Notes under the pieces: generated by a model
The model's input: only the letters and a program-made list of their open reading frames with translations
What the model was told of the DNA's origin: nothing
Databases searched by the model: none
Part shown: positions 11,373-34,614 of the stretch, in pieces
How positions within the stretch are numbered: the first letter of the stretch is position 1
How the letters are laid out: each line of letters begins with the position of its first letter
Position numbers and translations under genes: made by a program
Source: a virus
Lineage: Duplodnaviria; Heunggongvirae; Uroviricota; Caudoviricetes
Length of the DNA stretch: 40,397 nt
Direction: 5' to 3' (one strand)
Virus record (IMG/VR): IMGVR_UViG_2663763428_000010

Positions 11373-11703
11373 ATCAGCAGCAGAGCGCAAAGCCGCTCAG
11401 AGAGCCAGACAAGCTGAATCCGGTGTGCGTAAGCTGGAAATTATGCTTGATGCTCAGGAAATTGAAATGCTGGAGCGTAACTGTGCCACGCGTCGCCCCG
11501 GGCGTGCGCCTTACGAATTTGGTGAGTATATAGCGTTACTGATCCGCCAGGATGATGCACGCGTGCGTGGGCGTATGAAATCGATCAGCAGAAAACGTTG
11601 CGGTAAGTGCGGAGAGAGAGTTCCTGTGAATTCATGCCCGTGTAATGGTGACTCGCAATGCTGGGTGACTAAAGGCTGGCATGAAACGAAATTAATAGTG
11701 TGA
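11365..11703 (+). CDS. Hypothetical protein with C-terminal Cys cluster
   Basis: 112 aa; CGKCG...CPC motif; TGA stop lies inside the GTGACATGTCAC palindrome. Confidence 0.5.
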   Translation: MAKSAAERKAAQRARQAESGVRKLEIMLDAQEIEMLERNCATRRPGRAPYEFGEYIALLIRQDDARVRGRMKSISRKRCGKCGERVPVNSCPCNGDSQCWVTKGWHETKLIV

Positions 11704-11711
11704 CATGTCAC
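11700..11711. repeat. Exact 12-bp palindrome GTGACATGTCAC, copy 1 of 3
   Basis: Direct read; overlaps stop codon of the preceding gene. Confidence 0.9.
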
Positions 11712-11752
11712 GAGTAGATTATACATGATGAATTTGATGGGTTTTGAATACT

Positions 11753-11778
11753 GCCGCCAACTATGGCGGCTTTATTTT
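11753..11778 (+). terminator. Rho-independent terminator at end of early-right region
   Basis: GCCGCC-AACTAT-GGCGGC hairpin followed by TTTATTTT. Confidence 0.65.
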
Positions 11779-11789
11779 GCATGGTACTA

Positions 11790-11822
11790 TTACCACAACG
11801 GTAACTATTACCACGGTGGTTA
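11790..11822 (+). promoter_or_regulatory. Two operator palindromes immediately upstream of terminase small subunit (11790-11804 TTACCACAACGGTAA; 11808-11822 TTACCACGGTGGTTA)
   Basis: Tandem ACTATTACCAC direct repeats forming two TTACC-N5-GGTAA-type sites; second site abuts the terS start codon. Confidence 0.55.
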
Positions 11823-12418
11823 TGATGTCTGCTGAACCTAAAACCTATAAACGCAAATCAACGCAATTTAAGCCACTAACAGCAATGCAGGAGGCTTATT
11901 GCCAGTCATACATCAAAACGCCTGAAAACCAGACTCAGGCAGCGATTAACGCAGGATTCTCCCCAAATACAGCGGCAGTTAAAGCCAGTGTCATGATGCG
12001 CGATGAACGCATTCAAAAACGGATTGCCGAGTTGATGGAGGAGCGCAACAAACGAATGCGCGTCAGTGCTGATTACGTTCTCATGCGCCTGGTGGAGATC
12101 GACCAGATGGACGTGATCGACATCCTCAACGACGATGGGAGCCTTAAGCCAATCCGCGAGTGGCCGAAAATCTGGCGCACTACGCTTAGCGGCTTTGATC
12201 TGTCATCGACCATCATGAACATGAACGAGGATTCGATAGAGACAATCCTCAAAAAAATTAAATGGCCTGACAAGGTGAAGAACCTCGAACTGATTGGTAA
12301 GCACGTCGACGTCAACGCATTCAAAGAACGCCTGGATGTTAATGTGAATGTGACAATTGCTGATCGCATAGCAGCAGCCAGGAAGCGACTCAAAGAACGT
12401 CAGGATTGTAATCAGTGA
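11822..12418 (+). CDS. Terminase small subunit
   Basis: About 198 aa from ATG at 11822; position immediately upstream of large terminase; track ORF N-terminal extension crosses terminator and operators and is rejected. Confidence 0.65.
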   Translation: MMSAEPKTYKRKSTQFKPLTAMQEAYCQSYIKTPENQTQAAINAGFSPNTAAVKASVMMRDERIQKRIAELMEERNKRMRVSADYVLMRLVEIDQMDVIDILNDDGSLKPIREWPKIWRTTLSGFDLSSTIMNMNEDSIETILKKIKWPDKVKNLELIGKHVDVNAFKERLDVNVNVTIADRIAAARKRLKERQDCNQ

Positions 12419-13890
12419 CAGATACAGCGTTATCTCCTGAAGAGCAGTTGATCGAGGATATTGCAGGGTTCACTCACGATCCGCTTGGCTATGCCCTCTA
12501 TGCGTTCCCGTGGGGGGAAGAGGGGACTGAACTGGCACATGCTACCGGCCCACGTCAGTGGCAGGCTGATGCGTTCCGAGAGATACGTGATCACCTGCAG
12601 AATCCGGAGACGCGCTATCAGCCGCTTATGCTGGCACGCGCTTCTGGTCACGGTATTGGTAAATCCGCATTTATCTCAATGCTGATCAACTGGGGCATGT
12701 CCACTTGCGAGGATTGTAAGGTCGTGGTGACCGCCAACACCGACAACCAGCTACGAACGAAGACCTGGCCGGAAATTATCAAGTGGTCGAACCTTGCTAT
12801 CACGAAAGACTGGTTTACCTGTACCGCTACCGCGATGTACAGCAATGACCCTGGGCACGACAAGCGGTGGCGAGCTGACGCAATCCCCTGGTCTGAGCAC
12901 AACACTGAGGCATTCGCCGGACTACACAACGAGCGCAAACGCATCATCGTGGTATTCGATGAAGCGTCGAACATTGCGGATCTGGTGTGGGAAGTCGCTG
13001 AGGGTGCGCTTACGGACGAAGACACTGAGATTATTTGGGTGGCGTTCGGAAACCCGACGCGTAATACCGGACGTTTCCGCGAATGTTTCCGCAAATATAA
13101 ACACCGCTGGAAAACTGCGCAGATTGACAGCCGGACGGTGGAAGGCACCAACAAACAGCAGTTGCAGAAATGGGTTGATGACTACGGGGAAGACAGCGAC
13201 TTCGTTAAAATCCGTGTGCGCGGCATATTCCCTGATGCATCTGAATTGCAGTTTATCCCTACCGGTCTTACTGACGAGGCAATGAAACGGGTGGTAACTG
13301 CTGCGCAGGTGGCACATGCTCCGGTGATAATCGGCGTTGACCCTGCATACTCCGGTGTTGATGACGCGGTGATATACCTGCGGCAGGGGCTGCACAGTAA
13401 GGTGCTGTGGACCGGCAACAAGACCACTGACGATCTGATTATGGCAAAGCGTATCGCTGACTTTGAAGACCAGTATCAGGCTGACGCGGTGTTCATCGAC
13501 TTCGGTTACGGTACCGGGCTGAAGTCAATCGGTGACGGTTGGGGGCGCACATGGCAACTTGTTCCGTTCGGTGGCGCGTCTACTGACCCGCAGATGCTCA
13601 ACAAGCGTGGGGAGATGTTCAACTCATGCAAGACATGGCTGAGGCTGGGCGGCATGCTGGATGACCAGGAAACAGCGGACGACCTGTCGGCGGCAGAGTA
13701 CAAAGTTCGAGTGGACGGTAAAATCGTTATCGAACCGAAGGAAGATATCAAGGAGCGGCTTGGGCGTTCGCCGGGTAAAGGCGATGCGCTACTGCTGACG
13801 TTTGCGTTCCCTGTGTCTAAGCGTCTGCGAATTCCCGGGCAGCAGAACCAGCAAGGCAAGGCCATTACAGATTACGATCCCTATGCTTAA
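12415..13890 (+). CDS. Terminase large subunit
   Basis: 491 aa; Walker A-like GHGIGKS; nuclease-like C-terminal region; overlaps terS stop. Confidence 0.85.
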   Translation: MTDTALSPEEQLIEDIAGFTHDPLGYALYAFPWGEEGTELAHATGPRQWQADAFREIRDHLQNPETRYQPLMLARASGHGIGKSAFISMLINWGMSTCEDCKVVVTANTDNQLRTKTWPEIIKWSNLAITKDWFTCTATAMYSNDPGHDKRWRADAIPWSEHNTEAFAGLHNERKRIIVVFDEASNIADLVWEVAEGALTDEDTEIIWVAFGNPTRNTGRFRECFRKYKHRWKTAQIDSRTVEGTNKQQLQKWVDDYGEDSDFVKIRVRGIFPDASELQFIPTGLTDEAMKRVVTAAQVAHAPVIIGVDPAYSGVDDAVIYLRQGLHSKVLWTGNKTTDDLIMAKRIADFEDQYQADAVFIDFGYGTGLKSIGDGWGRTWQLVPFGGASTDPQMLNKRGEMFNSCKTWLRLGGMLDDQETADDLSAAEYKVRVDGKIVIEPKEDIKERLGRSPGKGDALLLTFAFPVSKRLRIPGQQNQQGKAITDYDPYA

Positions 13891-13932
13891 TCCGTTAGCG
13901 GGGATAATGACGGAGATATCCTCTGGTGAGGA

Positions 13933-13960
13933 TAAAACAAAGCCAGCTCATCGGCTGGCT
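13933..13960. terminator. Bidirectional rho-independent terminator between terminase and Gp49-like gene
   Basis: AGCCAGC-TCATCG-GCTGGCT hairpin flanked by A-tract upstream and GTTTGT downstream. Confidence 0.6.
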
Positions 13961-13964
13961 GTTT

Positions 13965-13976
13965 GTGACATGTCAC
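13965..13976. repeat. Exact 12-bp palindrome GTGACATGTCAC, copy 2 of 3
   Basis: Direct read; 4 nt from the stop codon of the Gp49-like gene and adjacent to the terminator hairpin. Confidence 0.9.
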
Positions 13977-13980
13977 GGTG

Positions 13981-14337
13981 TTATTGCTCGCTTAACTTCT
14001 GCTTCAGCAAGTAACCTTCAAGCATCCAGATTTTGTTTACAGCATTCTGCCGGGCAATCTTCCGACCAATTTCCGCATCAAAGTTTTCCGGGCTTGCACA
14101 GGCGCTCTCTCCGGTGACGGTGAAGCCGTTGCGCAGCACCAGAACGCAGAAAGTCAGGAGGTCTGTAGATTTATGCGCTGTCCATGAATCGCCAACGCCC
14201 ATATTGGCAGCACGAATGCCGTCATAAGCAGTAAAGAAATGCTCTTCAAGAATAATGCTTTCGATATATTGAGGCGTAACGCGCGGCGCGGCTAAACCTT
14301 TAGCCTGAATTTCAGATTCAATGTCTTTGTCACTCAT
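13981..14337 (-). CDS. N4 Gp49 / Sf6 Gp66-family protein (moron, function unknown)
   Basis: 118 aa minus-strand ORF inside an otherwise plus-strand late region; AAGGTGAG RBS; family assignment from recalled sequence pattern. Confidence 0.6.
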   Translation of the reverse strand: MSDKDIESEIQAKGLAAPRVTPQYIESIILEEHFFTAYDGIRAANMGVGDSWTAHKSTDLLTFCVLVLRNGFTVTGESACASPENFDAEIGRKIARQNAVNKIWMLEGYLLKQKLSEQ

Positions 14338-14353
14338 AGTCTAATCTCACCTT

Positions 14354-14377
14354 AAAAAAATGCCCGGCGAACCGGGC
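14354..14377 (-). terminator. Rho-independent terminator downstream of tRNA gene (minus strand)
   Basis: GCCCGG-TTCG-CCGGGC hairpin followed on the minus strand by U7; sits directly upstream of the Gp49-like gene RBS. Confidence 0.65.
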
Positions 14378-14540
14378 GAACTGGAAGCAATGAGTTATGC
14401 CTTCCGTGGCTGTACTGGTTTACAGCATGAAGTCATCGCAATGGCGTCCTGCTGTAAAAAGGGCGGTGATAGTCCTTCAAGGGAAACCATCACCGCCAAG
14501 CCCCTGGAACTTCTGGCATCACGGTCCTTAGGCGTGATTC

Positions 14541-14617
14541 TGGCGTGGCATGCAGGATTCGAACCTGCGACCAACCGCTTAGAAGGCGGTTGCTCTGTCC
14601 AACTGAGCTAATGCCAC
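14541..14617 (-). tRNA. tRNA-Arg, anticodon UCU (reads AGA)
   Basis: Reverse complement folds as full cloverleaf: acceptor GTGGCAT/ATGCCAC, D-arm GCTC...GAGC, anticodon stem ACCGC/GCGGT with loop CTTCTAA, T-arm GCAGG-TTCGAAT-CCTGC, discriminator G and encoded CCA. Confidence 0.85.
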
Positions 14618-14939
14618 AACGCTGAGAGCACTTAGCCTGTTAAGGCACCACACTTTGTCGCGGCTCCATAAATGCTCTCATCGTTGTACCCTCGCCTCTT
14701 CCGAGGCGTCACACCGAATCGCCGGGATGGTGAATCCCCGTGCGCGGAATAAAACCGCTCGACTTGCACATTCCGGCTACCTGGTTCGTTTGCCCGAGCA
14801 AGGGAGGGTGCCCCTTAAACGTATCCAGACCGCTATCGTCGCATGTGCCATACGCCGTACTGCTCAAAATAAAAGCTCACTCCACCTGTTCAATTTAACG
14901 ACAAGCCAGTCAGGTTAGTAACCGGAATGAACCCTTTAG

Positions 14940-14954
14940 TTACCTGAAGGGTAA
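14940..14954 (+). promoter_or_regulatory. Operator palindrome (TTACCTGAAGGGTAA) upstream of head gene operon
   Basis: TTACC-N5-GGTAA family member about 90 bp upstream of the ATG at 15045. Confidence 0.5.
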
Positions 14955-15044
14955 TAATTCGCGCGTTAAATGTCAACTGTCTACGATAAATAAATCATAT
15001 GTGGTTAAATTGGTAATGATTTAATTGCGTACGGAGTCATTGAT

Positions 15045-15251
15045 ATGTGCATGGGTAGCTCATCATCAGTGCCTGCAACACCAGAAGTTCAGGCAGCACC
15101 ACAGGAGCAGGATGCCGCCGTTGTTGATGCCCGCGACGAAGAAACTCGTCGCCGTCGCGCTGCTGCTGGTCGTAGTTCTACGCTGCTTACCGGTTCTCAG
15201 GGCGACACATCAACCGCTAATACCAGCGGTAAAACGCTGCTTGGTCAGTAA
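15045..15251 (+). CDS. Small hypothetical protein preceding portal (68 aa)
   Basis: GGAGTCATTGAT-ATG RBS context nearly identical to the portal RBS context. Confidence 0.45.
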   Translation: MCMGSSSSVPATPEVQAAPQEQDAAVVDARDEETRRRRAAAGRSSTLLTGSQGDTSTANTSGKTLLGQ

Positions 15252-15265
15252 CCGGAGTCATTGAA

Positions 15266-16945
15266 ATGGCGGAAACAACTAAAGAGCGATTGAACAAACA
15301 GTTCGCACAACTTGAAAGCGAGCGTCAGTCGTTCGAGCCGCACTGGCGCGAGTTGAGTGATTACATCAACCCGCGTGGTTCCCGCTTTCTGACTTCTGAG
15401 GTCAACCGTAACGATCGACGCAATACACGCATTATTGATTCGACCGGGACTATGGCGGCGCGCACTCTCGCCAGCGGCATGATGTCAGGCATCACAAGCC
15501 CCGCGCGTCCGTGGTTTCGCCTGGCTACGCCAGATCCTGAAATGATGGATTATGGCCCTGTTAAGTTGTGGCTTGAGGCGGTGCAGAACCGCATGAACGA
15601 TATGTTCAATAAGTCGAATCTCTATCAGTCGCTGCCGCAGTTATACGGAAGCCTCGGCACATACAGCACTGGTGCAATGGCAGTGCTGGAAGATGACGAG
15701 GACATCATTCGCACAATGCCATTCCCGATAGGCAGTTACTACCTGGCTAACTCACCTCGTGGCAGTGTGGACACCTGTTTTCGCAAGTTCGCTATGACTG
15801 TTCGTCAGCTTGTTCAGGAGTTCGGGCTAAATAACGTCAGCGAATCCGTAAAAAGCATGTGGGAAAGCGGCACCTACGAGAAGTGGATTGAAGTGATGCA
15901 TTCGGTTTACCCGAACATTGACCGCGATACATCGAAGCTGGATAGCAAGAACAAGCCATTCAAATCGGTTTATTACGAGGTTGGTGGCGATAACGACAAG
16001 TTGTTGCGTGAGTCCGGATTCGATGAGTTTCCAATTATGGCTCCGCGCTGGGAAGTTAACGGCGAAGATGTTTATGGATCATCATGCCCGGGTATGCTGG
16101 CGCTTGGACCTGTTAAGGCATTGCAGCTTCTTCAGAAGCGCAAGTCGCAGTTGATTGATAAAGCCACCAATCCGCCGATGGTTGCTCCGACTTCCCTCAA
16201 GAATCAGCGTGCCTCCCTTCTTCCTGGCGACATCACGTATATCGATCAGATTACTGGTCAGGATGGTTTCAGGCCTGCTTATCTGGTTAACCCCAGTACA
16301 GCAGATCTGGTAGCAGACATTCAGGACACTCGGCAAATCATTAACAGCGCCTACTTTGTCGATCTGTTCATGATGTTGCAGAACATCAATACCCGCTCGA
16401 TGCCTGTTGAAGCGGTGATCGAAATGAAAGAAGAAAAACTTCTGATGTTGGGGCCGGTTCTGGAGCGTCTGAACGACGAATGTCTTAATCCTCTCATTGA
16501 CCGCGCTTTCTCGATGATGGTGCGTAAAAACATGCTGCCGCCACCGCCTGACGCGATGGAAGGTATGCCCCTGAAGGTCGAATACATTTCCGTCATGGCT
16601 CAGGCGCAGAAGTCTATCGGCCTGTCCAGTCTGGCATCCACGGTCAACTTCATTGGTCAACTTGCGCAAGCGAAACCAGAAGCTCTCGACAAACTCAACG
16701 TTGATCAGGCGATCGATGCATTCGCTGATATGTCCGGAGTGTCTCCAACCGTCATTGTTCCGCAGGAACAGGTTGAGCAGGCTCGCCAGCAACGGGCACA
16801 GCAACAACAGCAGCAACAAATGATGGCGATGGGGATGGCGGCGGCACAGGGGGCCAAGACGCTAAGCGAAGCTAAAACTTCGGATCCGAGTGTGTTGTCA
16901 GCTATGGCGAATGCAGTTAGTGGTCAGGGTGGGCAATCACAATGA
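15266..16945 (+). CDS. Portal protein, T7 gp8-like head-to-tail connector
   Basis: 559 aa; size, position after terminase and poly-Q/acidic C-terminal tail; family call by recalled similarity. Confidence 0.8.
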   Translation: MAETTKERLNKQFAQLESERQSFEPHWRELSDYINPRGSRFLTSEVNRNDRRNTRIIDSTGTMAARTLASGMMSGITSPARPWFRLATPDPEMMDYGPVKLWLEAVQNRMNDMFNKSNLYQSLPQLYGSLGTYSTGAMAVLEDDEDIIRTMPFPIGSYYLANSPRGSVDTCFRKFAMTVRQLVQEFGLNNVSESVKSMWESGTYEKWIEVMHSVYPNIDRDTSKLDSKNKPFKSVYYEVGGDNDKLLRESGFDEFPIMAPRWEVNGEDVYGSSCPGMLALGPVKALQLLQKRKSQLIDKATNPPMVAPTSLKNQRASLLPGDITYIDQITGQDGFRPAYLVNPSTADLVADIQDTRQIINSAYFVDLFMMLQNINTRSMPVEAVIEMKEEKLLMLGPVLERLNDECLNPLIDRAFSMMVRKNMLPPPPDAMEGMPLKVEYISVMAQAQKSIGLSSLASTVNFIGQLAQAKPEALDKLNVDQAIDAFADMSGVSPTVIVPQEQVEQARQQRAQQQQQQQMMAMGMAAAQGAKTLSEAKTSDPSVLSAMANAVSGQGGQSQ

Positions 16946-17238
16946 CAGATTACGAAGACGATCAACTGAAAGAAGAAAACGCCCGTAAGCAACGTGACAT
17001 GGCGCAGCGTGAAATTGATGACATTCGCTTTGTCATGAGCAGTGAACAGGGGCGTCGCGTTGTCTGGTCGGTGCTGGAGAAAGGCCGTGTGTTTTCCGCT
17101 ATCTCACCGATGGACGCTATGGCAATGGCATTTAATGAGGGGCAACGCAATCTGGCGCTGGAACTGTTTCAGCGCGTTATGGCGCATTGCCCTGAACAGT
17201 ATTTGAAGATGGCCAAAGAGGCCAGTGAACAGGAGTGA
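16942..17238 (+). CDS. Hypothetical head-associated protein
   Basis: 98 aa; ATGA overlap with portal stop. Confidence 0.5.
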   Translation: MTDYEDDQLKEENARKQRDMAQREIDDIRFVMSSEQGRRVVWSVLEKGRVFSAISPMDAMAMAFNEGQRNLALELFQRVMAHCPEQYLKMAKEASEQE

Positions 17239-17240
17239 TC

Positions 17241-17936
17241 ATGAATTTATTTGAGCGTTTGCCGTATCGCCGTCTTTGCAATGAGCAACCAGTCGATGGT
17301 GGAGCAGCTCCGGCTGCGTCAGAACCGTCAGCGCCTGCAGGTGATACCCCTGCTCCAGTTGGTGATCCATCACAACAGGAAGGTGATAAGACACAACCTG
17401 TTGCTGATGGCGATAAACCTGCTGATGACAAAAAGCCTGAAAGCGATAAGCAGGGTGAAAAAAAGGACGGCGATAAACCGGAGGGTGCGCCGGAGAAGTA
17501 CGAGTTTCAGGCTGCCGAAGGCGTAGAGCTGGATACAGAAGCGTTGAAGGAATTCGAGCCGGTGGCGCGAGAACTAAACCTGACCAACGAGCAAGCGCAA
17601 AAGCTGGTTGATGCTTATCCGAAGATTCTGGCAGGTGTGCAGCAGCGCCAGGCAGAAGCCTGGCAGAAAACAACCGAGCAGTGGGCTGCTGATGTAAAAG
17701 CTGACAAAGAAATCGGTGGCGACAAGTTGATTTCTAACCTTAGCGCCGCACAGCGTGCGCTTGACCAGTTCGGGACACCTGAACTCAAAGAATATCTGAA
17801 CACCACCGGGCTCGGTAATCACCCTGATCTGGTCAAAACGTTCGTGAAAATCGGAAAGGCGATGTCTGAAGATGGCATGGTCACCGGTGGTAATGAAGGC
17901 CAGCGTAGTGCGGCCGAAGTGCTCTATGGCAAATAA
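17241..17936 (+). CDS. Scaffolding protein candidate
   Basis: Acidic, Pro/Ala-rich N-terminus and helical C-terminus; located between portal and major capsid; ATG at 17241 with AGGAG RBS. Confidence 0.5.
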   Translation: MNLFERLPYRRLCNEQPVDGGAAPAASEPSAPAGDTPAPVGDPSQQEGDKTQPVADGDKPADDKKPESDKQGEKKDGDKPEGAPEKYEFQAAEGVELDTEALKEFEPVARELNLTNEQAQKLVDAYPKILAGVQQRQAEAWQKTTEQWAADVKADKEIGGDKLISNLSAAQRALDQFGTPELKEYLNTTGLGNHPDLVKTFVKIGKAMSEDGMVTGGNEGQRSAAEVLYGK

Positions 17937-17944
17937 GAGAGGAA

Positions 17945-18937
17945 ATGACAATGGCTGTTAAAGGCTTAACTGCGCTAACGCTGGCTGACTGGGGTAAGCG
18001 CGTCGATCCAAACGGGAAAGTCGATAAGATTATCGAGCTTCTCGGTCAAACTAACCCGATCCTTCAGGATATGCCTTTTGTCGAAGGGAATCTTCCTACC
18101 GGACACCGAACCACCATTCGTTCTGGTTTACCTTCAGCTACCTGGCGTTTGCTGAACTATGGCGTACAGCCAAGCAAATCAACCACAGTGCAGGTCACCG
18201 ATTCCGTTGGCATGCTGGAAACCTATGCTGAAGTCGATAAGTCACTGGCTGATCTGAACGGTAATACCGCCGAATTCCGCCTGTCTGAAGACCGCGCATT
18301 TATTGAAGCGATGAATCAGCAGATGGCGCAGACGTTGTTTTATGGTGATTCCAGCGTTAACCCTCAGCAGTTTATGGGACTGTCCTCCCGCTATTCCAGC
18401 CTGTCTGCGGGTAATGCTCAGAACATCATTGATGCTGGTGGCACGGGTACAGATAACACCTCAATCTGGTTAGTGGTGTGGGGCGAAAACACCGTGCATG
18501 GCATCTTCCCGAAAGGGCAGAAGGCTGGCATCCAGATGGAAGATAAAGGCCAGGTGACACTGGAAGATGCTAATGGCGGCAAGTACGAAGGCTATCGCAC
18601 CCATTACAAATGGGACAACGGACTTGCTCTGCGTGACTGGCGTTATGTTGTTCGCATTGCAAACATCGATGTCAGCAATCTTTCAGAACCTTCCTATGCC
18701 GCAAATATTGCGAAGTTGATGGTTAAAGCACTGCATCGCATTCCAAACCGTGGAATGGGTCGCCCGGTGTTCTACATGAACCGCACTGTAGGCCAGGCTC
18801 TTGATCTGCAATCTCTGGAGAAAACATCTCTGGCGATCAGCGTAAAAGAGACAGAAGGCGAGTGGTGGACTTCATTCCGTGGTGTACCAATCCGTGAAAC
18901 TGATGCGCTTCTGGAAACAGAAGCCCGCGTGGTGTAA
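17945..18937 (+). CDS. Major capsid protein
   Basis: 330 aa ORF after scaffold with AGAGAGGAA RBS; followed by small virion genes and a strong terminator. Confidence 0.7.
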   Translation: MTMAVKGLTALTLADWGKRVDPNGKVDKIIELLGQTNPILQDMPFVEGNLPTGHRTTIRSGLPSATWRLLNYGVQPSKSTTVQVTDSVGMLETYAEVDKSLADLNGNTAEFRLSEDRAFIEAMNQQMAQTLFYGDSSVNPQQFMGLSSRYSSLSAGNAQNIIDAGGTGTDNTSIWLVVWGENTVHGIFPKGQKAGIQMEDKGQVTLEDANGGKYEGYRTHYKWDNGLALRDWRYVVRIANIDVSNLSEPSYAANIAKLMVKALHRIPNRGMGRPVFYMNRTVGQALDLQSLEKTSLAISVKETEGEWWTSFRGVPIRETDALLETEARVV

Positions 18938-18988
18938 CGCCTGTTATTAACCTGTGGGTCGTAACAGACCCACTAATGGAGAAAGAAG

Positions 18989-19426: not shown

Positions 19427-19427
19427 G

Positions 19428-19772
19428 GTGATATCGATGTCAGGTGAGAAACCAAGATACCGCGTTCTGCGCCTCTCTCATATCCATAACACTCTGTGGC
19501 CGGAGGGGGCAGAAATCGAATACGAAGGTGAGCCTGGTAGCGCACTGGAACCTGTTAACGATGCAGCCAGACAGGCAAAAGCAAAAGTTGCAGGAAAGGT
19601 GTCAATGGCAGCAACCAGCACCAAAATCATCAACGATGTGTCAGATGATGGTGAACTGGATAAGCTCCGTGAAGAGTACGAATTGCTCTTTAACGAGAAG
19701 CCACACCATAACGCCAAAGCCGAAACGCTCCGCGAGAAGATCGCAGATAAGCGTAAAGAACTGGGCGTGTAA
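19428..19772 (+). CDS. Hypothetical protein
   Basis: 114 aa ORF; followed by terminator. Confidence 0.5.
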   Translation: MISMSGEKPRYRVLRLSHIHNTLWPEGAEIEYEGEPGSALEPVNDAARQAKAKVAGKVSMAATSTKIINDVSDDGELDKLREEYELLFNEKPHHNAKAETLREKIADKRKELGV

Positions 19773-19788
19773 GCCTCGCGAATCAGAC

Positions 19789-19810
19789 AAGGGGCTTCGG
19801 CCCCTTTATT
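19789..19810 (+). terminator. Rho-independent terminator after capsid gene block
   Basis: AAGGGGC-TTCG-GCCCCTT hairpin followed by TATT. Confidence 0.65.
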
Positions 19811-19822
19811 GCAGGAGTGTAT

Positions 19823-23686: not shown

Positions 23687-24225
23687 TGTGTAACCCAGCC
23701 ATCGCTTTGGTTGCCGTCACAGTGGCATCCACAGCAGCGTCAATGTACAGCCAGAGCAAGCAGGCAAAATACCAGTCAGCCATAGCAGATCGGAATGCTG
23801 AAATTGCTGAAGCTCAGGCACAGGATTCAATCAATCGTGGGAATATTGAAGCGGATCAGCGTCGTCGTGAAATGCGTCAACGCTCAGGCACTGCGGCGGC
23901 TACTATGGGGGCTACCGGTGCGGAATTAAGTAGCGGAACAGCTCTTGACGTTTTTGCGGATAATGCTCAGTTCGGCACTCTTGATGCGTTAACGACAGTG
24001 AATAATGCTCAGCGTGAGGCATATGGGTATCAGGTTCAGGGAATGAATGCTCAGGCACAGGGGGCTGCTGCTCAGTCGGCTGCTAAATCATCGATGACCA
24101 GCACTTTGTTAACGGCACCACTAAAAGCATACGGTGCATACCAGATGGGCGGCGGAACGTGGAGCCCGTTCTCTCAGAAGGCTGCGCCGATTTCTGCTGC
24201 TGTTGGCACTCCAACCGGTCGATAA
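23686..24225 (+). CDS. Internal virion protein candidate (Ala/Gln-rich)
   Basis: 179 aa; low-complexity helical protein in the ejection-protein block. Confidence 0.4.
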   Translation: MCNPAIALVAVTVASTAASMYSQSKQAKYQSAIADRNAEIAEAQAQDSINRGNIEADQRRREMRQRSGTAAATMGATGAELSSGTALDVFADNAQFGTLDALTTVNNAQREAYGYQVQGMNAQAQGAAAQSAAKSSMTSTLLTAPLKAYGAYQMGGGTWSPFSQKAAPISAAVGTPTGR

Positions 24226-24237
24226 GGGGATAATAAG

Positions 24238-26751
24238 ATGCCAGTTGTACCAACAACATCGGGCCGTCAGGTTCAGAGCAGAGGGATTTCGACGCAGGGA
24301 TTCTCATCGTTTCAGACACCAAATGTCGGTGATGTACTTGGCGATGTTGCAGAGCAATATGCAGGTATTATTGCGCAGGCAAAACAGCGTGCGAATGTTG
24401 CTATGGCTCAGGATGCTTCTCTTAGCTTAAGCCAGATAAGCAGCGATCTGCTGAATAACCCTGAAACAGGTTTGCTTAACCTGAAAGGGAAAAATGCTAT
24501 TGGAAAAGGTCAGGAGTATACGCAGCAGTTTGATGCTCAGATCGAACAACTGGCTATGTCGCTGCCGGATGAACAGGCTCGTAATGCTTTCATGCAGCAG
24601 GCGCAGCAGCAGCGTATTCAGTTCACTACGCAGGCCGGGCGGCACGAGATAGGGCAAATAAATGCCTACGAAGAAGGCCAGTTTCAGGCGACGCTGCTGA
24701 ACAATGGTAAAAATGCCGCAGCATTGTATGGCGACAACGCCGCATACGTATTGGCTAATAAGCAAACTTTCCAGCAAATTGAGGATTACGGCATTGCGCA
24801 TGGCTGGAGCGACGAGCAAATACAGGCCAAGAAAATCGAGTTTAAAGAGAAGGTTGCTGATGCCGCATTGTCCCAGTGGTCGGCAAACAATGCGACCGCA
24901 TTCATCCAAAGTAATGGTGAGTTAAGTGATACTGCTGCTGGATCTCGCCGTGCTGTAGCAGATAGTGGCTATTCCGATCGTGCTCGAGGTATACGCAACA
25001 ATAACCCCGGCAATCTTGAATACAGCAAAACTAATCCGTGGGTAGGCCAGACCGGTGATGATGGCCGATTTGCTAAATTTGAAACGCCTGAACACGGGAT
25101 TCGTGCATTAGGGCGAAACCTGATGTCGTATCAGCGGCAGGGTATTGATACCGTCAACGAGATAATTAATCGCTGGGCACCGCCTACTGATAAAAATGAC
25201 ACAATGTCGTATATCAAAGCCGTGTGCGAACAACTTGGCGTTTCTGCTGATGAGCCTCTCGATGCATCTAATCCGGATACCCTGAAGGCGCTTTGTGCAG
25301 CCATTATCCATCATGAGAACGGTAGCCAGCCATACAGTGATCAGCAGTTAACTGCTGGTGTCAACGCAGCACTTGGTTTATCAACAATTCCAACCAACAC
25401 CAAACGCTATACCGGTAATGCAGCATTCGATGCGGCATCTCCTGAGGCTCAGGCAAGTTTTATGCGGCAGGCGGATCAACTGCGTCGGCAGCAGCAGGCT
25501 GAATATAAAACGATGATTGACAGCCAGGTTCGCGATGCGACGGCTGCGTATATGCGTGGCGTTGAATTTCCTAACCCACCAGGTGAGGCTGATTTTATTG
25601 CAGCTTATGGCGTCAGAGAAGGAAACCTGCGATATACCGAGTTCAGAAATACGCAGATCGCTGGACAGTATATAGGCTCTTTCCGCAACATGCCGACAAG
25701 CAGCATTACAGCATATGTTGAGCAATTACGCCCGGATACTGGTGATACAGGGGAGGGGTATGCGGCACGCGCAGCTCTTTATGACAACGTTGTTTCTGCT
25801 GCAAATCAGGTGATAAAGCAGCGGCAGTCGGATCCTGTGCAGTTCTCTCTTTCCTCCGGACAGGCAAAGCCTATCGACATGAGCAATAAGGATAACTTTG
25901 GACAGAGCGTTGCCTTGCGTGCCGCTCAGGTCAGTGACCTTGCTAAGTCATATGGCACTCCACTGACGTTCTTTTCCAAAGACGAGGCCAATCAGATCGG
26001 TGTTTTCTTTCGTGATGCTCCAGTTTCCCAACAGGCAGCATATCTCGATACCATCAGGCAGAGCACTGGTGGTGGGCAGGTGTATATGTCAGCACTACAG
26101 CAGATCAGTGCCAACGCTCCATCTGCTGCCGTTGCCGGGATACTGATGGACAAGCCTGGTGGTATTTTGGCAGAAAAAAACTGGTTTAATCCGGATGTTT
26201 CCGTGTCTCCTGAAACCGCTGCGCAGACAATTCTTGCTGGCGCGGCGGCTCGTAAAGGTACTGATGATGCGAAAGGTATTCCGATGCCTAAAGATGCTGA
26301 TCTTCGCCTTGAGTTTTCTGACATGGTGAAGGATGCATTTGCTGGTGATGCTCAGGGGGCATCAATGGCATACGAGATCGCAAAGGACTATTACGCTGGT
26401 GTGATGGCGAAAAAAGGCGTGGTATCAGGCGAAATTGACACTGATATCTGGAAACAGGCTGTTAACGTAGCTACAGGTGGCGTGCATGACTATAACGGAA
26501 TGGGGAATGTCCTTTTGCCGTGGGGAATGTCTGCAGAGCAATTCGATAAGCAGGTTAATCAGGCTTGGAATGAACAAGTTGTCGGCACCGGGATAAAAAC
26601 ACCGCCTGGTCAGTATGGTTTGCAAAGTTACGGCGATAGTCAGTACCTGGTGAAACTTGGTACTGGTTATCTGCTGAAAGATGATGGTTCTCCTGTTGTT
26701 CTTGATCTGACACAGAAGCGTCAGAGATTCTCCGGAGATATTCCGCAATGA
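24238..26751 (+). CDS. Internal virion / ejection protein (large)
   Basis: 837 aa; part of three consecutive large proteins typical of podovirus core/ejection proteins. Confidence 0.55.
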   Translation: MPVVPTTSGRQVQSRGISTQGFSSFQTPNVGDVLGDVAEQYAGIIAQAKQRANVAMAQDASLSLSQISSDLLNNPETGLLNLKGKNAIGKGQEYTQQFDAQIEQLAMSLPDEQARNAFMQQAQQQRIQFTTQAGRHEIGQINAYEEGQFQATLLNNGKNAAALYGDNAAYVLANKQTFQQIEDYGIAHGWSDEQIQAKKIEFKEKVADAALSQWSANNATAFIQSNGELSDTAAGSRRAVADSGYSDRARGIRNNNPGNLEYSKTNPWVGQTGDDGRFAKFETPEHGIRALGRNLMSYQRQGIDTVNEIINRWAPPTDKNDTMSYIKAVCEQLGVSADEPLDASNPDTLKALCAAIIHHENGSQPYSDQQLTAGVNAALGLSTIPTNTKRYTGNAAFDAASPEAQASFMRQADQLRRQQQAEYKTMIDSQVRDATAAYMRGVEFPNPPGEADFIAAYGVREGNLRYTEFRNTQIAGQYIGSFRNMPTSSITAYVEQLRPDTGDTGEGYAARAALYDNVVSAANQVIKQRQSDPVQFSLSSGQAKPIDMSNKDNFGQSVALRAAQVSDLAKSYGTPLTFFSKDEANQIGVFFRDAPVSQQAAYLDTIRQSTGGGQVYMSALQQISANAPSAAVAGILMDKPGGILAEKNWFNPDVSVSPETAAQTILAGAAARKGTDDAKGIPMPKDADLRLEFSDMVKDAFAGDAQGASMAYEIAKDYYAGVMAKKGVVSGEIDTDIWKQAVNVATGGVHDYNGMGNVLLPWGMSAEQFDKQVNQAWNEQVVGTGIKTPPGQYGLQSYGDSQYLVKLGTGYLLKDDGSPVVLDLTQKRQRFSGDIPQ

Positions 26752-28550
26752 GTTACTTTGGCCTTAATCCAGTAAACCAGAATCAGCAACTTGACGAAGC
26801 AGCATCAAATCCAGCGGGCTTTAACAGCGATGTTGGTTTTTTCGACAATGCTGTAGGAGCGGCATTGTCTGGTTTGTACTCCGGGCTGGTGGCAAAGCCA
26901 GATCAGTTGCTATGGGCAGGGATGGATAAAATCGTATCCCCGATTGCTCAGTTTATTAACGAAAACACCTCGCTCAATGATACTTCAGTTTCATACATTG
27001 CCGAGCAGAGAAAACTAGCAGAGCAGCAGGTTAAGCGGCTGACGCCTGATGCCGCGACAACCGGAACCGCCGGGCAGGTTCTTTATGGGTTGTTCGATAT
27101 GGGCGGGCAGGCTGTTGTCGGTACAACGCTCGGTGGTCCTGTCGGAGGTGCAGCGGCGGTAACTTCGCTACAGGGTTTTTCTGAGTTTGAACGGCTGACA
27201 GCACAGGGTGTTGATTTCAGGACGGCGCAGGAAGCGGGATTAGTGCAGGGCATTACTGCTGGTGCCGGAACACTGATCCCTATGAGCCTCGGGTTACGTG
27301 CTGGTGGTGCGCTGGCGGAAGGTGTGGCGGCTCAGCTTGCGCGGACGGGTGAGAGTTCAGTGCGACGCGCCGCAGCAACAGCAGTACGTGCAACGCCAGA
27401 TATTGCCTATGCCGCAGGTACAAATATTGCGTTCGGTATGGCACAGCGTGGGCTTACTGCAAAAACGCTTCGTGATGGTGGCTATAGCGAAATGGCTAAC
27501 CAGTATGATGTGTTGGATCGACAGGCAATTGCTATTGATGCTGTTCTTGGGGTGGCGTTTGGTGGTGTCGGCAGATTTATTAACTCTCGCGGCGAGTCTA
27601 CAAGCGCACCAAATTTTTCACCAGTTGATGTCGATGCTGCACTGGCGGCGAATGCCGCTCATCATGCTGAAATTGATATTGCTCCTGGCGTCCCGATCAA
27701 CGTGCTTTCGCGCAATTCTCACATTCAGGCTCTGCGAAAAGCCATGTCTGATGTTAGCCAGGGGAGACCTGTAGACGTTGCCAGCATTGTTGAGTCTGCA
27801 TCTTTCAGTGAAATTCCTGGGCGCAAGAGTCTGCTGTCTCAGGCAGTTAATGAGGCTCTGTCATCTGTAGATGATGGAGTAACGGCGCGCGCTATAGAAA
27901 ATCGGTTGCTTGAAGAACAGGCCGCGCAGCTTTTGCCGCGTGGCGATAGACAGGTTTACCAGTCTGAAATCGCTAATAGCCAACGAATTATTGAAAATCT
28001 CACTGAACAGCGCGCACAAATTCTTGCAGAAGAGCCAACCGGTAGCGGTAAGGCTTTATCTCGTGCTCGATCAGATAAACAGGCCAGACTTCGCGATATT
28101 GACCAACGAATCCGGCAGGCGCAAGAACGCCTGGAATTTTCTCGTAACGCGTTGGCACCGCATGAGCCTGGCGGTCAGTTTTTTGAAGCTCGAGCAGAAC
28201 TGGCACGGCGACAGCAGGCAGAAAGTGAACTTAATGCTCAGGCTGTTTCATTCTATAAAACAGCAGAGGTCAGGACGCCAGACGAAGTAGCTCCTTTTGA
28301 GCCCGGTAAGATATTGCAACAGACAGAACAAAAAATGATGGCAGATCCGGCAGGAGATATTGATCTGCGTATAGCTGAAGACTCGCTGCTTGAATCTCCG
28401 GACATGATAATCACCGTGCTGGATGATGATGGTAATCCACAATCGCGCAGTGCGCGTGAAGTACTGGATGAAGCGAACAGGGAAAGTGAGCAGGCAATAC
28501 AGGATTCCAGCCTGTTTGATGTTGCTGTGGCGTGTTTCTTGAGAGGTTAA
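26748..28550 (+). CDS. Internal virion / ejection protein with Gly-rich hydrophobic segments
   Basis: 600 aa; ATGA overlap; glycine/alanine-rich hydrophobic stretches suggest membrane insertion. Confidence 0.55.
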   Translation: MSYFGLNPVNQNQQLDEAASNPAGFNSDVGFFDNAVGAALSGLYSGLVAKPDQLLWAGMDKIVSPIAQFINENTSLNDTSVSYIAEQRKLAEQQVKRLTPDAATTGTAGQVLYGLFDMGGQAVVGTTLGGPVGGAAAVTSLQGFSEFERLTAQGVDFRTAQEAGLVQGITAGAGTLIPMSLGLRAGGALAEGVAAQLARTGESSVRRAAATAVRATPDIAYAAGTNIAFGMAQRGLTAKTLRDGGYSEMANQYDVLDRQAIAIDAVLGVAFGGVGRFINSRGESTSAPNFSPVDVDAALAANAAHHAEIDIAPGVPINVLSRNSHIQALRKAMSDVSQGRPVDVASIVESASFSEIPGRKSLLSQAVNEALSSVDDGVTARAIENRLLEEQAAQLLPRGDRQVYQSEIANSQRIIENLTEQRAQILAEEPTGSGKALSRARSDKQARLRDIDQRIRQAQERLEFSRNALAPHEPGGQFFEARAELARRQQAESELNAQAVSFYKTAEVRTPDEVAPFEPGKILQQTEQKMMADPAGDIDLRIAEDSLLESPDMIITVLDDDGNPQSRSAREVLDEANRESEQAIQDSSLFDVAVACFLRG

Positions 28551-28555
28551 ATTAA

Positions 28556-31030
28556 ATGAGACAGGAATGTATACAAGCGGTCCAGCAGGCGGCGCAGCGC
28601 ACGTTAACGGCGCGAGAAATACAGAACATTGAAGACCGCATTTATCGAAATATGCGCTCCATTGCTCGTGATGACCCGATGTCGTGGCGACAACTTTCCG
28701 AATCAGAACGGTTGTATCGTGCAGCACAATTGGCATCTGAAGAATTACAGCGAGAAGCGGCATTAAAGAAACGTCGTGTGGCTCTCACTATAGCCGCACG
28801 TCAGAGATTGGATAAATTTATCAATAGCTATCAAGGGGCTGATGGGAAACTTGGCGCTCTTAACCGTACTATTGCTTTTAATGCAGACGGTAAATCGAAT
28901 TTCCTCTCTGTTGAATCCAGAACAAAAGCCACTCGTGATTATGCATTGAGTCAATTGCAGGAGGCATTTGAAGCAGTTGATCCTCGCTTTTTTGGTCTGT
29001 TTGAAGATGAAGCGGGCGTACGTGACCTGGTATATGAAATGCGGGGGCAAAATACTGGCAATGCTAAAGCAAGAAAAGGTGCTAAGGCGTGGAGAGAAGT
29101 TACAGAGCTGCTGCGCCGCCGGTTTAATGATGCTGGTGGGGACATTGGCTATCTCGAAAACTGGGGGATCCCTCAACATCATTCTATGGAAAAGGTTGGG
29201 GCGGTATCAAAGGATAAGTGGGTTAGCGATGTTATAGGTAAGCTGGATCGCAAATATTATACCCGAGCCGATGGACAACTGATGAACGATGCCGAGTTGT
29301 CTGCATTTCTTGGAGAGGCTTATAACACGATCGCTACTGGTGGGCTGAATAAGCTTACTGATACCGGAATGCGAATTTCCGGCGCACGTGCTAACCGTGG
29401 TAATGCATCACGACAGATACATTTCAAAGATGCAGATTCCTATCTCCAATATCAACAACTTTATGGCGATCGCTCTCTATGGGAAATCATGGTCGGTCAC
29501 CTGGAAGGTATCAGTAAAGATATTTCTCTGGTGGAAACATATGGTCCAAACCCCGATCATGTTTTCCGCTCACTTCTTGATCAGGTTAAGGCAGAAACGG
29601 CAACAGCTAACCCGAGTAAAACCGGTAAAGTCGAGCGGCTGGCGAACAACACAGAGAATCTGTACAACTTTATTTCCGGAAAGACACAGCCTGTAGCGAA
29701 TCCGCACATCGCGCAATGGTCTGACAATATCCGCAACTGGCTGGTTGCCAGCAGACTCGGATCCGCGTTGCTGTCATCGTTCTCTGATCTTGGAACCATG
29801 TATCTGTCTGCGAAGGTGACCAACCTTCCAATGAACCAGTTATTCCGCAACCAGCTTGAAGCTATGGACCCAACGAACCGTACTGAGCTTGCGCGGGCGC
29901 GACGCGCTGGTCTGGCGATGGAATCTCTACTTGGCAGCGTTAACCGCTGGGCGATGGATAATATGGGGCCGTCTGTGTCTCGTTGGGCTGCAACGGCGGT
30001 AATGCGTGCTAGTGGGCTTACAGCATGGTCAGATGCGCACAAGCGCGCCTATGGCGTAACCATGATGGGAAGCCTGGGAGAAGTAGTGTCACGGACACCA
30101 GACCTTCATAGCCTCGATGATTCTGATTTTCGTATCCTGAAAAGCAAAGGGATTACTGACACAGACTGGAGCGTATGGAGGCTGGCGCAACAGGAGGACT
30201 GGGGGAACGGCAATAATACGATGTTGACACCGGAAAGCATTATGCGTATCCCTGATTCAGCAGTTAAACATCTTGGTGAGCCTGAACGCGTGAAATTTGA
30301 GGCAATGCGTAAATTGCTCGGTGCCGTAACTGAAGAAGTTGATATGGCTGTTATTACACCGGGAGCACGTGAGCAACTGATAACTGGTTCTGGTATTCAG
30401 CGTGGAACATGGAAAGGTGAATTAACGAGAAGTGTTTTCCTGTTTAAATCGTTCCCTATCTCGGTGGTTATGCGTCACTGGTCACGCGCTATGGGTATGC
30501 CGTCTGCTGGTGGGCGTGCGGCATATATTGCGACGTTTATTGCCAGTACGACCATTCTTGGCGCTTTGTCGCAGCAACTTAACGACCTTGCGTCTGGTCG
30601 TAATCCTCGAGAGATGACAGGAGAAGATGCCGCAAAATTCTGGCTTGGTGCTCTACTGAAAGGTGGTGGTCTTGGCCTTTACGGTGACTTTTTATTGTCA
30701 GATCACACTAGGTACGGAAGCGGCGCGCTGGCGTCGATGCTTGGCCCGGTAGCTGGTCTGGTTGATGACGTAGTGAAGATTGCTCAGGGCATACCGTTAA
30801 ATGCTGTGGAAGGGAAGAATGAGCAGACTGGTGGTGATCTGGTTAAGCTGGGGAAAGGTTTGATGCCTGGTGCGAATCTCTGGTACTTGAAGGCGGCTCT
30901 CGATCACATGATCTTTAACCAGATGCAGGAGTATTTTTCACCAGGCTATTTGCGTAAAATGGAGCAACGTTCGAAGAAAGAGTTTAACCAGACATACTGG
31001 TGGAGACCTCAGGATGTCACTCCGCAATAA
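28556..31030 (+). CDS. Internal virion / ejection protein (large)
   Basis: 824 aa ORF completing the ejection-protein block. Confidence 0.55.
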   Translation: MRQECIQAVQQAAQRTLTAREIQNIEDRIYRNMRSIARDDPMSWRQLSESERLYRAAQLASEELQREAALKKRRVALTIAARQRLDKFINSYQGADGKLGALNRTIAFNADGKSNFLSVESRTKATRDYALSQLQEAFEAVDPRFFGLFEDEAGVRDLVYEMRGQNTGNAKARKGAKAWREVTELLRRRFNDAGGDIGYLENWGIPQHHSMEKVGAVSKDKWVSDVIGKLDRKYYTRADGQLMNDAELSAFLGEAYNTIATGGLNKLTDTGMRISGARANRGNASRQIHFKDADSYLQYQQLYGDRSLWEIMVGHLEGISKDISLVETYGPNPDHVFRSLLDQVKAETATANPSKTGKVERLANNTENLYNFISGKTQPVANPHIAQWSDNIRNWLVASRLGSALLSSFSDLGTMYLSAKVTNLPMNQLFRNQLEAMDPTNRTELARARRAGLAMESLLGSVNRWAMDNMGPSVSRWAATAVMRASGLTAWSDAHKRAYGVTMMGSLGEVVSRTPDLHSLDDSDFRILKSKGITDTDWSVWRLAQQEDWGNGNNTMLTPESIMRIPDSAVKHLGEPERVKFEAMRKLLGAVTEEVDMAVITPGAREQLITGSGIQRGTWKGELTRSVFLFKSFPISVVMRHWSRAMGMPSAGGRAAYIATFIASTTILGALSQQLNDLASGRNPREMTGEDAAKFWLGALLKGGGLGLYGDFLLSDHTRYGSGALASMLGPVAGLVDDVVKIAQGIPLNAVEGKNEQTGGDLVKLGKGLMPGANLWYLKAALDHMIFNQMQEYFSPGYLRKMEQRSKKEFNQTYWWRPQDVTPQ

Positions 31031-31039
31031 GGAAGTGTT

Positions 31040-31213
31040 GTGTTTTTAATTATTTTGAGTGTGATAATTTCTGGTGGATTGTTATTTATTGACCGCTACA
31101 AATATTTTCTTAACCCTCAGACTCAAGCTATTTGCTGGTTCATCTTTGCTGTGCAGGGAGTAGTTCTTGTTGCAAGCCTTATTGAGGGGAGGCCTCTTAT
31201 TTTTATTGGGTAA
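31040..31213 (+). CDS. Small hydrophobic protein candidate (57 aa, two predicted TM helices)
   Basis: GTG start with GGAAG RBS; below the 60 aa track threshold, read directly from sequence. Confidence 0.3.
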   Translation: MFLIILSVIISGGLLFIDRYKYFLNPQTQAICWFIFAVQGVVLVASLIEGRPLIFIG

Positions 31214-31225
31214 ATAGGTGACTAC

Positions 31226-31522
31226 ATGCAAGCTATAGGATTCATTGTTTATATCGTCGTTGGTCTTTTTCAGTTGGCAGCAATTATGGCTGGGCTTGAA
31301 TCATGGTGGGGATTGCACTGGATAATTGCAGCCCCCATTGCTTTCATCGTGAGCTATATTCCATTTGTTGGAGCGATTGTTGGTATGGTTGGCGCTGTGG
31401 ATGTATGGCGGTGGGAGTGGTGGCAGGCTGGCCTTCTATTCTTTGGTGGGATAATCTTTGCTATTGTCTGCGGTGGAATGTCATCATTTTTCGAATGGCT
31501 ATCATTCAGAAAAGGGACGTGA
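31226..31522 (+). CDS. Integral membrane protein (moron; possible superinfection exclusion)
   Basis: 98 aa, three to four hydrophobic helices, Trp-rich; AGGTGA RBS; stop inside GTGACATGTCAC palindrome. Confidence 0.55.
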   Translation: MQAIGFIVYIVVGLFQLAAIMAGLESWWGLHWIIAAPIAFIVSYIPFVGAIVGMVGAVDVWRWEWWQAGLLFFGGIIFAIVCGGMSSFFEWLSFRKGT

Positions 31523-31530
31523 CATGTCAC
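31519..31530. repeat. Exact 12-bp palindrome GTGACATGTCAC, copy 3 of 3
   Basis: Direct read; overlaps stop codon and abuts the terminator. Confidence 0.9.
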
Positions 31531-31556
31531 AGGCCGCTTTCGCGGCCTTGTTTTTA
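31531..31556 (+). terminator. Rho-independent terminator
   Basis: AGGCCGC-TTTC-GCGGCCT hairpin followed by TGTTTTTA. Confidence 0.7.
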
Positions 31557-34590: not shown

Positions 34591-34614
34591 GCCGCTCTTG
34601 CGGCCTTTAAATTT
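34589..34614. terminator. Hairpin terminator between convergent genes
   Basis: AGGCCGC-TCTT-GCGGCCT followed by TTAAATTT. Confidence 0.45.

Follow-up and report, generated by a model that had tools for sequence, protein, structure and literature searches.

Three copies of a palindrome at the ends of transcription units

The stretch of viral DNA analysed here (the window; 40,397 nucleotides, IMG/VR record IMGVR_UViG_2663763428_000010) comes from a temperate podovirus of the genus Uetakevirus that resembles phiV10 and epsilon15 and is 96% identical to phage ZX5 across the terminase region. It carries exactly three exact copies of the 12-bp palindrome GTGACATGTCAC, referred to as sites 1 to 3, and the same 12-mer appears in none of 100 dinucleotide-preserving shuffles of the window. 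The palindrome most probably serves as the docking site on DNA for a small phage protein, the gene of which ends in site 1. This gene, an open reading frame (ORF) at 11365–11703, encodes a member of the epsilon15 gp49/N15 gp46 family, called here the gp49 family. The sites are listed below with the genes and intrinsic terminators that adjoin them.

11365–11703, plus strand: gp49-family gene, 112 amino acids, proposed binder of the palindrome; its stop codon lies inside site 1
11700–11711: site 1, GTGACATGTCAC (14-bp form tGTGACATGTCACg), over the TGA at 11701–11703 of the gp49-family gene
11753–11778, plus strand: intrinsic terminator (stem 11753–11770) 41 bp past site 1, at the end of the early-right operon
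13931–13960, minus strand: intrinsic terminator (stem 13941–13960) 4 bp from site 2
13965–13976: site 2, flanked by the ends of terL (13890) and of the minus-strand PF13876 gene, abutting the minus-strand terminator
13981–14337, minus strand: gene of the N4 Gp49/Sf6 gp66 family (PF13876), with its TAA 4 nt from site 2
31226–31522, plus strand: ORF of 98 amino acids (phrog_3075), the last gene of the tail block, with its TGA in site 3
31519–31530: site 3, over the TGA of the final tail-block ORF, with a plus-strand terminator directly after it
31531–31556, plus strand: intrinsic terminator (stem 31531–31548) directly after site 3

The identity of the three junctions is set by comparison with the annotated genomes of phiV10, epsilon15, SPN1S and Tyrion. 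Site 1 marks the end of the early-right operon, ahead of terS; site 2 separates terL from a variable region of morons and tRNA; and site 3 divides the tail block from a minus-strand island, which in the window holds an Ant antirepressor operon with isrK-like and C4-like RNAs ahead of it. This operon converges on site 3. A preliminary description of this DNA had reported a thrice-repeated exact 12-bp palindrome, placed at module boundaries, with a stop codon in or near each copy and a terminator hairpin beside it. These observations are borne out: the boundaries match the phiV10 and epsilon15 annotations, sites 1 and 3 contain a TGA and site 2 lies 4 nt from a TAA, and a hairpin is present at all three sites. 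The hairpin at site 2 has its T-run on the minus strand and serves to terminate the PF13876 gene, not terL; this gene is the one that had been described as Gp49-like, and it is unrelated to epsilon15 gp49. Read along the terminated transcript, all three sites show the same order of stop codon, palindrome, hairpin and T-run. The palindrome is not itself an intrinsic terminator, as it could form a stem of 4 bp at most and has no T-run.

Co-inheritance of the site and the gp49-family gene

Searches with tblastn identify homologues of the gp49-family protein in unrelated phages, and we examined five of these genomes. In the Pectobacterium myovirus ZF40, GTGACATGTCAC lies 3 bp past the stop codon of the homologue and two more copies are present, and in the lambda-like phage Chlobot it lies 7 bp past the stop codon. 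A P2-like Yersinia phage has GTGACGCGTCAC over the stop codon of the homologue, N15 has GTGACTGGTCAC over the stop codon of gene 46 together with two further copies of the same type, and the Vibrio phage K303 contains three GTGAC-(AC/GC)-GTCAC sites.

A survey of IMG/VR loci covered 157 distinct gp49-family homologues (31–100% identity) in podo-, myo- and siphoviruses, P2-like phages and N15-like plasmid prophages. A GTGAC-NN-GTCAC site falls between −12 and +40 of the stop codon in 134 of the 157, and elsewhere within 10 kb in a further 21, giving 155 of 157; one of the two loci without a site is truncated. Most of the sites that adjoin a stop codon do so in an identical register that places the TGA within the site. 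No gene other than that of the gp49 family is common to these backgrounds beside the site. In the converse test, at least 78 of 120 viral-contig stretches with TGTGACATGTCACA encode a homologue or sit in a context typical of homologue-bearing phages.

The geometry of the site is strict. We counted 248 instances of GTGAC-N2-GTCAC in the dereplicated homologue loci (2.58 Mb), where about 2.5 would be expected. For each of the other spacers (0, 1 and 3–8 bp) the count is 0–4, with none at all for the 3-bp spacer, and everted and direct arrangements of the half-sites number 2–3. The half-sites are invariant and the central dinucleotide depends on the clade (AT, CT, GT, TT, GC, TG or AC). A pyrimidine stands before each half-site in about 95% of cases (Y...R flanks), so that the full site spans 14 bp. 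Variation at one flank is independent of that at the other (observed and expected pairs are 35 and 37 for C/C, 17 and 18 for T/T, and 49 and 51 for C/T), so there is no selection for pairing between them. Inverted YGTGAC half-sites, a fixed 2-bp spacer and independent flanks are the features of a short dyad-symmetric operator, and this geometry would fit a symmetric dimer that reads two YGTGAC half-sites on duplex DNA.

As RNA the palindrome has a stem of at most 4 bp, and a hairpin in RNA or a cruciform was rejected as the principal explanation because the flanks are complementary no more often than chance. We also rejected a restriction or modification target with an invariant core such as CATG, as it is the centre that varies by clade and the outer half-sites that are invariant. 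The idea of a nuclease or methylase target, put forward in the preliminary description, is unlikely for the same reason: the central CATG is not kept in other clades (GC, TG, AC, CT).

In phiV10, epsilon15, SPN1S and Tyrion, which are ~80% identical to the window, GTGACATGTCAC lies at the same three junctions, with one mismatch at site 1 of phiV10. The flanks of the sites have diverged, and site 3 is kept in all four phages despite different upstream genes. Of 80 close IMG/VR relatives, 77 have site 1; two of the three exceptions are loci that end at the gene end, and the other is a 1-nt variant. Site 2 is present in about 60% of these 80 relatives, and the rest have a one-base change or a replaced region. 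Because it is mutated by 1 nt or replaced in some relatives, site 2 is dispensable. The pattern across relatives indicates that the palindrome is under selection, though single copies can be lost.

We scanned four 50-kb stretches of the Escherichia coli K-12 chromosome, a limited sample of the host amounting to 200 kb, and found no exact 12-mer and no GTGAC-N2-GTCAC of any kind. A REP-like (repetitive extragenic palindrome) host repeat or common host motif was rejected on the basis of this 200-kb sample. The sample from the terminus region contains four sites of the matS type and none with a 2-bp spacer, and the three other samples contain neither. The matS consensus, which is the target of MatP, is the 13-bp GTGAC-RNY-GTCAC with a 3-bp spacer (PMC6907758).

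The preliminary description had raised the questions of whether the 12-mer recurs at equivalent junctions of related phages, as it does in the four Uetakeviruses, and whether it is common in the host, where the 200-kb sample has no copy. Its suggestion of a protein binding site is strongly supported by the co-inheritance in 155 of 157 cases, the strict 2-bp spacing and the independent Y flanks. We infer, with good confidence, that a dimer of the ORF 11365–11703 product binds the palindrome.

Two other matches in the window were examined. A fourth generic match, GTGACCCGTCAC at 35502–35513, has Y...R flanks and lies in the tailspike gene; it was rejected as a probable coding by-product of the residues R-D-P-S, and relatives that encode the same tailspike R-D-P-S mostly lack a site of this type. 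A near-match, GTGACATGGCGC, lies at 16994–17005 inside a small gene after the portal gene, and many relatives have GTGACATGGCAC there; this recurrence probably represents coding conservation.

The gp49-family protein

The product of ORF 11365–11703 is assigned to phrog_536, labelled 'transcriptional regulator', and to no Pfam family, and its relatives are named 'hypothetical' or given a generic regulator label in every source. The 112-residue protein has three parts: a basic N-terminal helix, a strand–helix–helix pattern (RKLEIML, then DAQEIEMLERNCA, then EYIALLIRQDD) and a C-terminal Cys cluster (C79, C82, C91/C93, C99) in which C79, C82 and C99 never vary and C91 is almost invariant. An AlphaFold2 monomer model of low confidence (predicted local distance difference test score, pLDDT, 63) has helices at residues 30–42 and 52–75 after an unstructured stretch at 20–29. 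The helices sit where a ribbon–helix–helix (RHH) fold predicts them, and residues 20–29 occupy the position of the RHH strand.

Three of seven family members weakly match the CopG-like YbfE family in NCBIfam (best E 0.004, below the cut-off). The family has no significant match in Pfam (even at E ≤ 10), the PDB or PADLOC, and profile-versus-sequence comparisons with MatP, CopG and Arc were not significant. Against E. coli MatP, hhalign gave a probability of 0.1% or less, MatP being compared as a sequence and not as a profile because the MatP homologues found were near-identical only. The protein matches no Q family, and Pfam and NCBIfam searches found no recombinase-like domain in it. From its sequence pattern and predicted helices, the gp49-family protein is probably an RHH DNA binder with a C-terminal Cys cluster of the zinc type.

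The proposed pair resembles the known RHH regulators and their operators (P22 Arc, Mnt, CopG, MetJ, omega and antitoxins) in having a small predicted dimer, a strand–helix–helix pattern, a short dyad operator beside its own gene and likely autoregulation. It differs from them in that classical operators overlap an upstream promoter, whereas the phage operator lies over a 3' stop codon with no promoter, and in that the gp49-family protein has an extra Cys-cluster domain and a fold that is statistically unconfirmed. A small dimeric regulator with a dyad operator is thus a known kind of system. What is new is the gp49 family with its 14-bp site, the placement of an operator over the regulator's own stop codon across very different phages, and the extra copies of the site at transcription-unit ends.

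This gene-plus-site pair occurs in many unrelated temperate phages and is undescribed in the literature that we searched, which contained no paper with the 12-mer and none characterising a gp49-family protein; the paper on ZX5 is confined to the repressor, antirepressor and integrase. With these results an anonymous family of 'hypothetical protein' or 'transcriptional regulator' entries becomes a testable regulator–operator pair with a defined 14-bp site. Its carriers are Salmonella and E. coli O157 phages of the epsilon15 and phiV10 types, prophages that resemble ZF40, lambda or P2, plasmid prophages of the N15 type, and Vibrio phage-plasmids. The unusual layout of the operators may reveal how phages of the epsilon15 group separate or time their transcription units, and in lambdoid prophages the pair may bear on excisionase expression. 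The site is also an orthogonal DNA-binding part, the half-sites of which match those of host matS without overlap with matS itself.

Transcription context and possible roles of the proposed binder

Beyond the stop codon of the homologue itself, 64 of 103 unique sites lie at, or no more than 40 nt after, the stop codon of an ORF of at least 60 amino acids, compared with 14% of random positions, and 21% of the 103 lie inside long ORFs versus 60% of random positions. The gp49-family gene usually closes an early operon or stands close to its end. A terminator comes within a few bp after the site in the epsilon15 group and in one ZF40-like case; in N15 and lambda-like prophages, what comes after the site is a ribosome binding site with its gene, in many cases one for an excisionase (PF07825, DUF4224). 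In ZF40-like myoviruses two sites 2.0–2.5 kb apart, both inside genes, bracket the cI-cro-cII immunity region (5125 and 7622 in ZF40, locus L005; similarly in L133, L135 and L157), and the homologue lies with a third copy 7 kb downstream of this pair. In N15-like plasmid prophages the replication gene repA contains a GTGACTGGTCAC site, which in N15 (L008, position 33237) lies ~0.6 kb from the start of the gene, and such a site is present in most of the N15-type loci examined (L290–L327).

In many lambdoid prophages (IMG/VR loci such as L249, L261, L288, L334 and L347), an excisionase gene (PF07825, DUF4224 or HTH_17-like) comes immediately after the homologue and its site. This suggests that the pair controls excision in these prophages.

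The sites lie at or after stop codons and not over the promoter of a regulated operon. No −10 element is found at a fixed offset from them, and a promoter in which GTGACA would serve as the −35 element was rejected because no −10-like hexamer is conserved at a constant distance. Site 1 shows only weak promoter-like matches, which are not conserved, and at site 3 the terminator starts 1 bp after the site, so that a promoter would not fit.

A separate family of repeats serves the prophage repressor. The epsilon15 record annotates ATTACC-N5-GGTAAT repeats as repressor operators, and for this reason the palindrome was rejected as an operator of that repressor. The window has ten exact copies of TTACC-N5-GGTAA (4966, 5028, 5740, 8071, 8133, 11790, 14940, 32667, 33734 and 33827), located on both sides of the repressor gene, upstream of terS and the head blocks, and in the ant region. 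Copies with one mismatch include those at 5788, 11808 and 34947, and one such copy precedes the tailspike gene. At the junction of site 1, the terminator at 11753–11778 is followed by these operators and then by terS. Because the repeats lie before them, the late blocks look directly repressor-controlled and, as each has operators of its own, they also look like separate units split by the junctions of site and terminator.

Across the phages surveyed, the order site then terminator occurs 22 times and the reverse 5 times, an excess that we do not use as independent evidence because it is dominated by one inherited junction (site 2 of the Uetakeviruses). The preliminary description had proposed an element coupled to termination. 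This is plausible in the epsilon15 group, where all three sites are upstream of a terminator in its direction, and does not hold generally: outside this group, what comes after the site is a ribosome binding site with its gene, or else the site falls within a gene. Near-identical terminator hairpins of the form AGGCCGC-NNNN-GCGGCCT occur at 31531–31548 and 34589–34606, 3 kb apart, and only the first of them adjoins the palindrome.

We propose that the palindrome is a double-stranded operator, formed by two inverted 5'-Y-GTGAC half-sites exactly 2 bp apart, to which a dimer of the gp49-family protein would bind. The gene and the site travel as a cassette in which the site is built over the gene's own stop codon, so that the protein would be released next to its target. 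As the last product of the early-right operon, the protein would occupy three transcription-unit ends and would act there as a boundary element on elongating RNA polymerase, limiting crossing between units. It would also limit its own synthesis, and each site would complement a one-way intrinsic terminator. In our judgement the explanation as a whole, a dimer-bound operator with a boundary role, has somewhat less than an even chance of being correct; the roadblock or boundary mechanism at transcription-unit ends is in itself the more tentative element, possible rather than probable.

A boundary role is favoured because the sites lie inside transcribed DNA at the borders of units without a promoter, and because the region upstream of every late block bears operators of its own. 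Between terL and site 2 no plus-strand terminator is predicted, and no minus-strand terminator is predicted for the Ant operon ahead of site 3; only one direction has a predicted intrinsic terminator at each of these two convergent junctions, which again favours a boundary role. Nearly all known RHH proteins are repressors.

Several observations weigh against this proposal. The RHH fold of the protein is not statistically established, with no Pfam or PDB match and a poor monomer model (pLDDT 63). Some of the ZF40-like and N15 sites lie within genes, and single sites are not essential, site 2 being mutated or lost in some relatives and site 1 of phiV10 being a 1-nt variant. A roadblock over the gene's own stop codon would stall polymerase before that stop, and heavy late transcription has to cross site 3. 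The order of gene, site, terminator and late genes fits an antiterminator equally well. A bolder formulation is that the gp49 family constitutes a new transcription-elongation regulator. From a 14-bp site a few bp upstream of terminators and over its own stop codon, it would decide whether polymerase stops or continues where operons end, by antitermination close to terminators or as a boundary factor selective for direction, and many temperate phages would reuse the cassette to gate late, excisionase and replication genes. We consider this unlikely.

The sites might instead load an antiterminator, with the gp49-family protein modifying the passing RNA polymerase so that the terminator is read through and the late genes are turned on. 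The last early gene is indeed followed by site 1, a terminator and terS/terL, the palindrome is 0–41 bp upstream of a terminator in the terminator's own direction at all three sites, and a similar layout of site then terminator is seen in the unrelated ZF40-like context. The protein would then be an analogue of lambda Q at qut, though one loaded on elongating polymerase; the lambda system (Q/qut/tR') is one in which the regulator is likewise the last early gene, followed by a DNA site, a terminator and late genes, and in which this adjacency favours action in cis. Phage proteins with zinc fingers that touch RNA polymerase are known, namely Q and Ogr. Read-through is, however, not obviously needed where the late blocks have operator-bearing promoter regions of their own, and the terminator at site 2 belongs to a minus-strand moron and faces terL. 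Unlike the lambda system, the gp49 family is not a Q family, there are three sites and not one, and no promoter, fixed −10 element or sigma-dependent pause element adjoins them; known RHH proteins are, besides, nearly all repressors. Phages that have their own Q or Ogr (Chlobot, N15 and Yersinia P2-like phages) also carry the gp49-family cassette, as an accessory. We regard an antiterminator as rather improbable.

An architectural role, in which the protein would bridge two or three sites and loop the phage DNA in the manner of MatP tetramers, organising or isolating a genome segment, is a still less probable explanation. The two systems share GTGAC/GTCAC half-sites, an RHH element (in MatP), a small number of dispersed sites per replicon and the same bacterial orders. 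Phage genomes typically have 2–3 sites, pairs 2.0–2.7 kb apart recur (terS–terL here, the ZF40-like immunity region and Vibrio K303), and control of transcription is less obvious for the sites inside genes. In contrast to matS, which is 13 bp, the phage site is strictly 12 bp (248 against 0 sites with the 3-bp spacer of matS), and the gp49 family has neither detectable homology to MatP nor a match to PF06303 or PF17414. The phage system is also phage-borne, tied to a phage gene and located at gene ends, and in the many phages with a single site (Chlobot and Yersinia P2-like phages) there is nothing to bridge.

The preliminary description had also entertained a recombination site at module boundaries, and the palindrome could be a linker of this type, a conserved island of 12–14 bp, beside a terminator at sites 2 and 3, that provides a crossover point for modules and morons. 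Similarity between relatives ends exactly at the edge of the palindrome at sites 1, 2 and 3, variable moron regions start beside sites 2 and 3, and the phage encodes RecT/RecE-type recombinases. Mosaic breakpoints do fall at the site edges, but selection on a cis-acting site between freely exchanged flanks predicts the same pattern. Twelve bases are very short for homologous exchange, the protein has no recombinase-like domain, and the strict spacing, the independent Y flanks and the linkage to one gene family point to recognition by a protein. We regard a recombination linker as quite improbable.

Even less likely, in our view, is an RNA element, a GUGAC-NN-GUCAC hairpin in a 3' untranslated region or between cistrons through which protein binding would regulate message stability or how the following gene is translated. 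The overlap with the stop codon is in the same register in nearly all lineages, and in N15, Chlobot-type phages and many lambdoid prophages 10–50 nt separate the site from the ribosome binding site of the gene that comes after it, in many cases one for an excisionase. There is a likeness, which implies no homology, to Com of phage Mu, the zinc-finger translational activator of mom and a small Cys-rich protein with a target at the 3' end of its own gene before the next cistron, and the Cys cluster of the gp49-family protein recalls that of Com. Com binds RNA, however, whereas the evidence on the phage palindrome favours duplex DNA: the stem has only 4 bp with flank complementarity at the level of chance, the sites occur in both orientations relative to transcription (one N15 site is read from the other strand), and perfect inverted half-sites are a hallmark of a dimer on duplex DNA.

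Recognition by a host factor (MatP, SlmA or another) or a restriction or methylation system, with no role for the adjacent phage gene, is very remote: the half-sites are identical to those of matS and the hosts of all these phages belong to gammaproteobacterial orders that have MatP, but the half-sites are set strictly 2 bp apart and in no case 3 bp apart as in matS, the sampled K-12 DNA with matS-type sites has none that are 2-bp spaced, the site follows one phage gene through unrelated backgrounds, and the central CATG is not conserved.

Some further features of these loci were observed. In the Klebsiella prophage ST512-KPC3phi13.3 (L369), a near-perfect LexA box, TACTGTTTAAATATACAGTA, lies just after site 1 (~19700–19740), within promoter-like sequence and ahead of a small gene inserted between the regulator gene and terS. 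In the window, the terS start annotated in phiV10 corresponds to a TTG at 11744, upstream of the terminator at 11753–11778 and the operators; the ATGs at 11823 and 11826, which match the epsilon15 start, look the more likely. The moron region between site 2 and the head genes contains a tRNA-Arg gene (anticodon TCT; 14541–14617, minus strand). Beyond site 3, Rfam matches above the gathering score place a C4 antisense RNA at 33513–33596 and an isrK Hfq-binding RNA at 33621–33697, both on the minus strand and just upstream of the Ant antirepressor gene (32754–33479, minus strand), an arrangement that resembles the antirepressor control region immI of phage P1.

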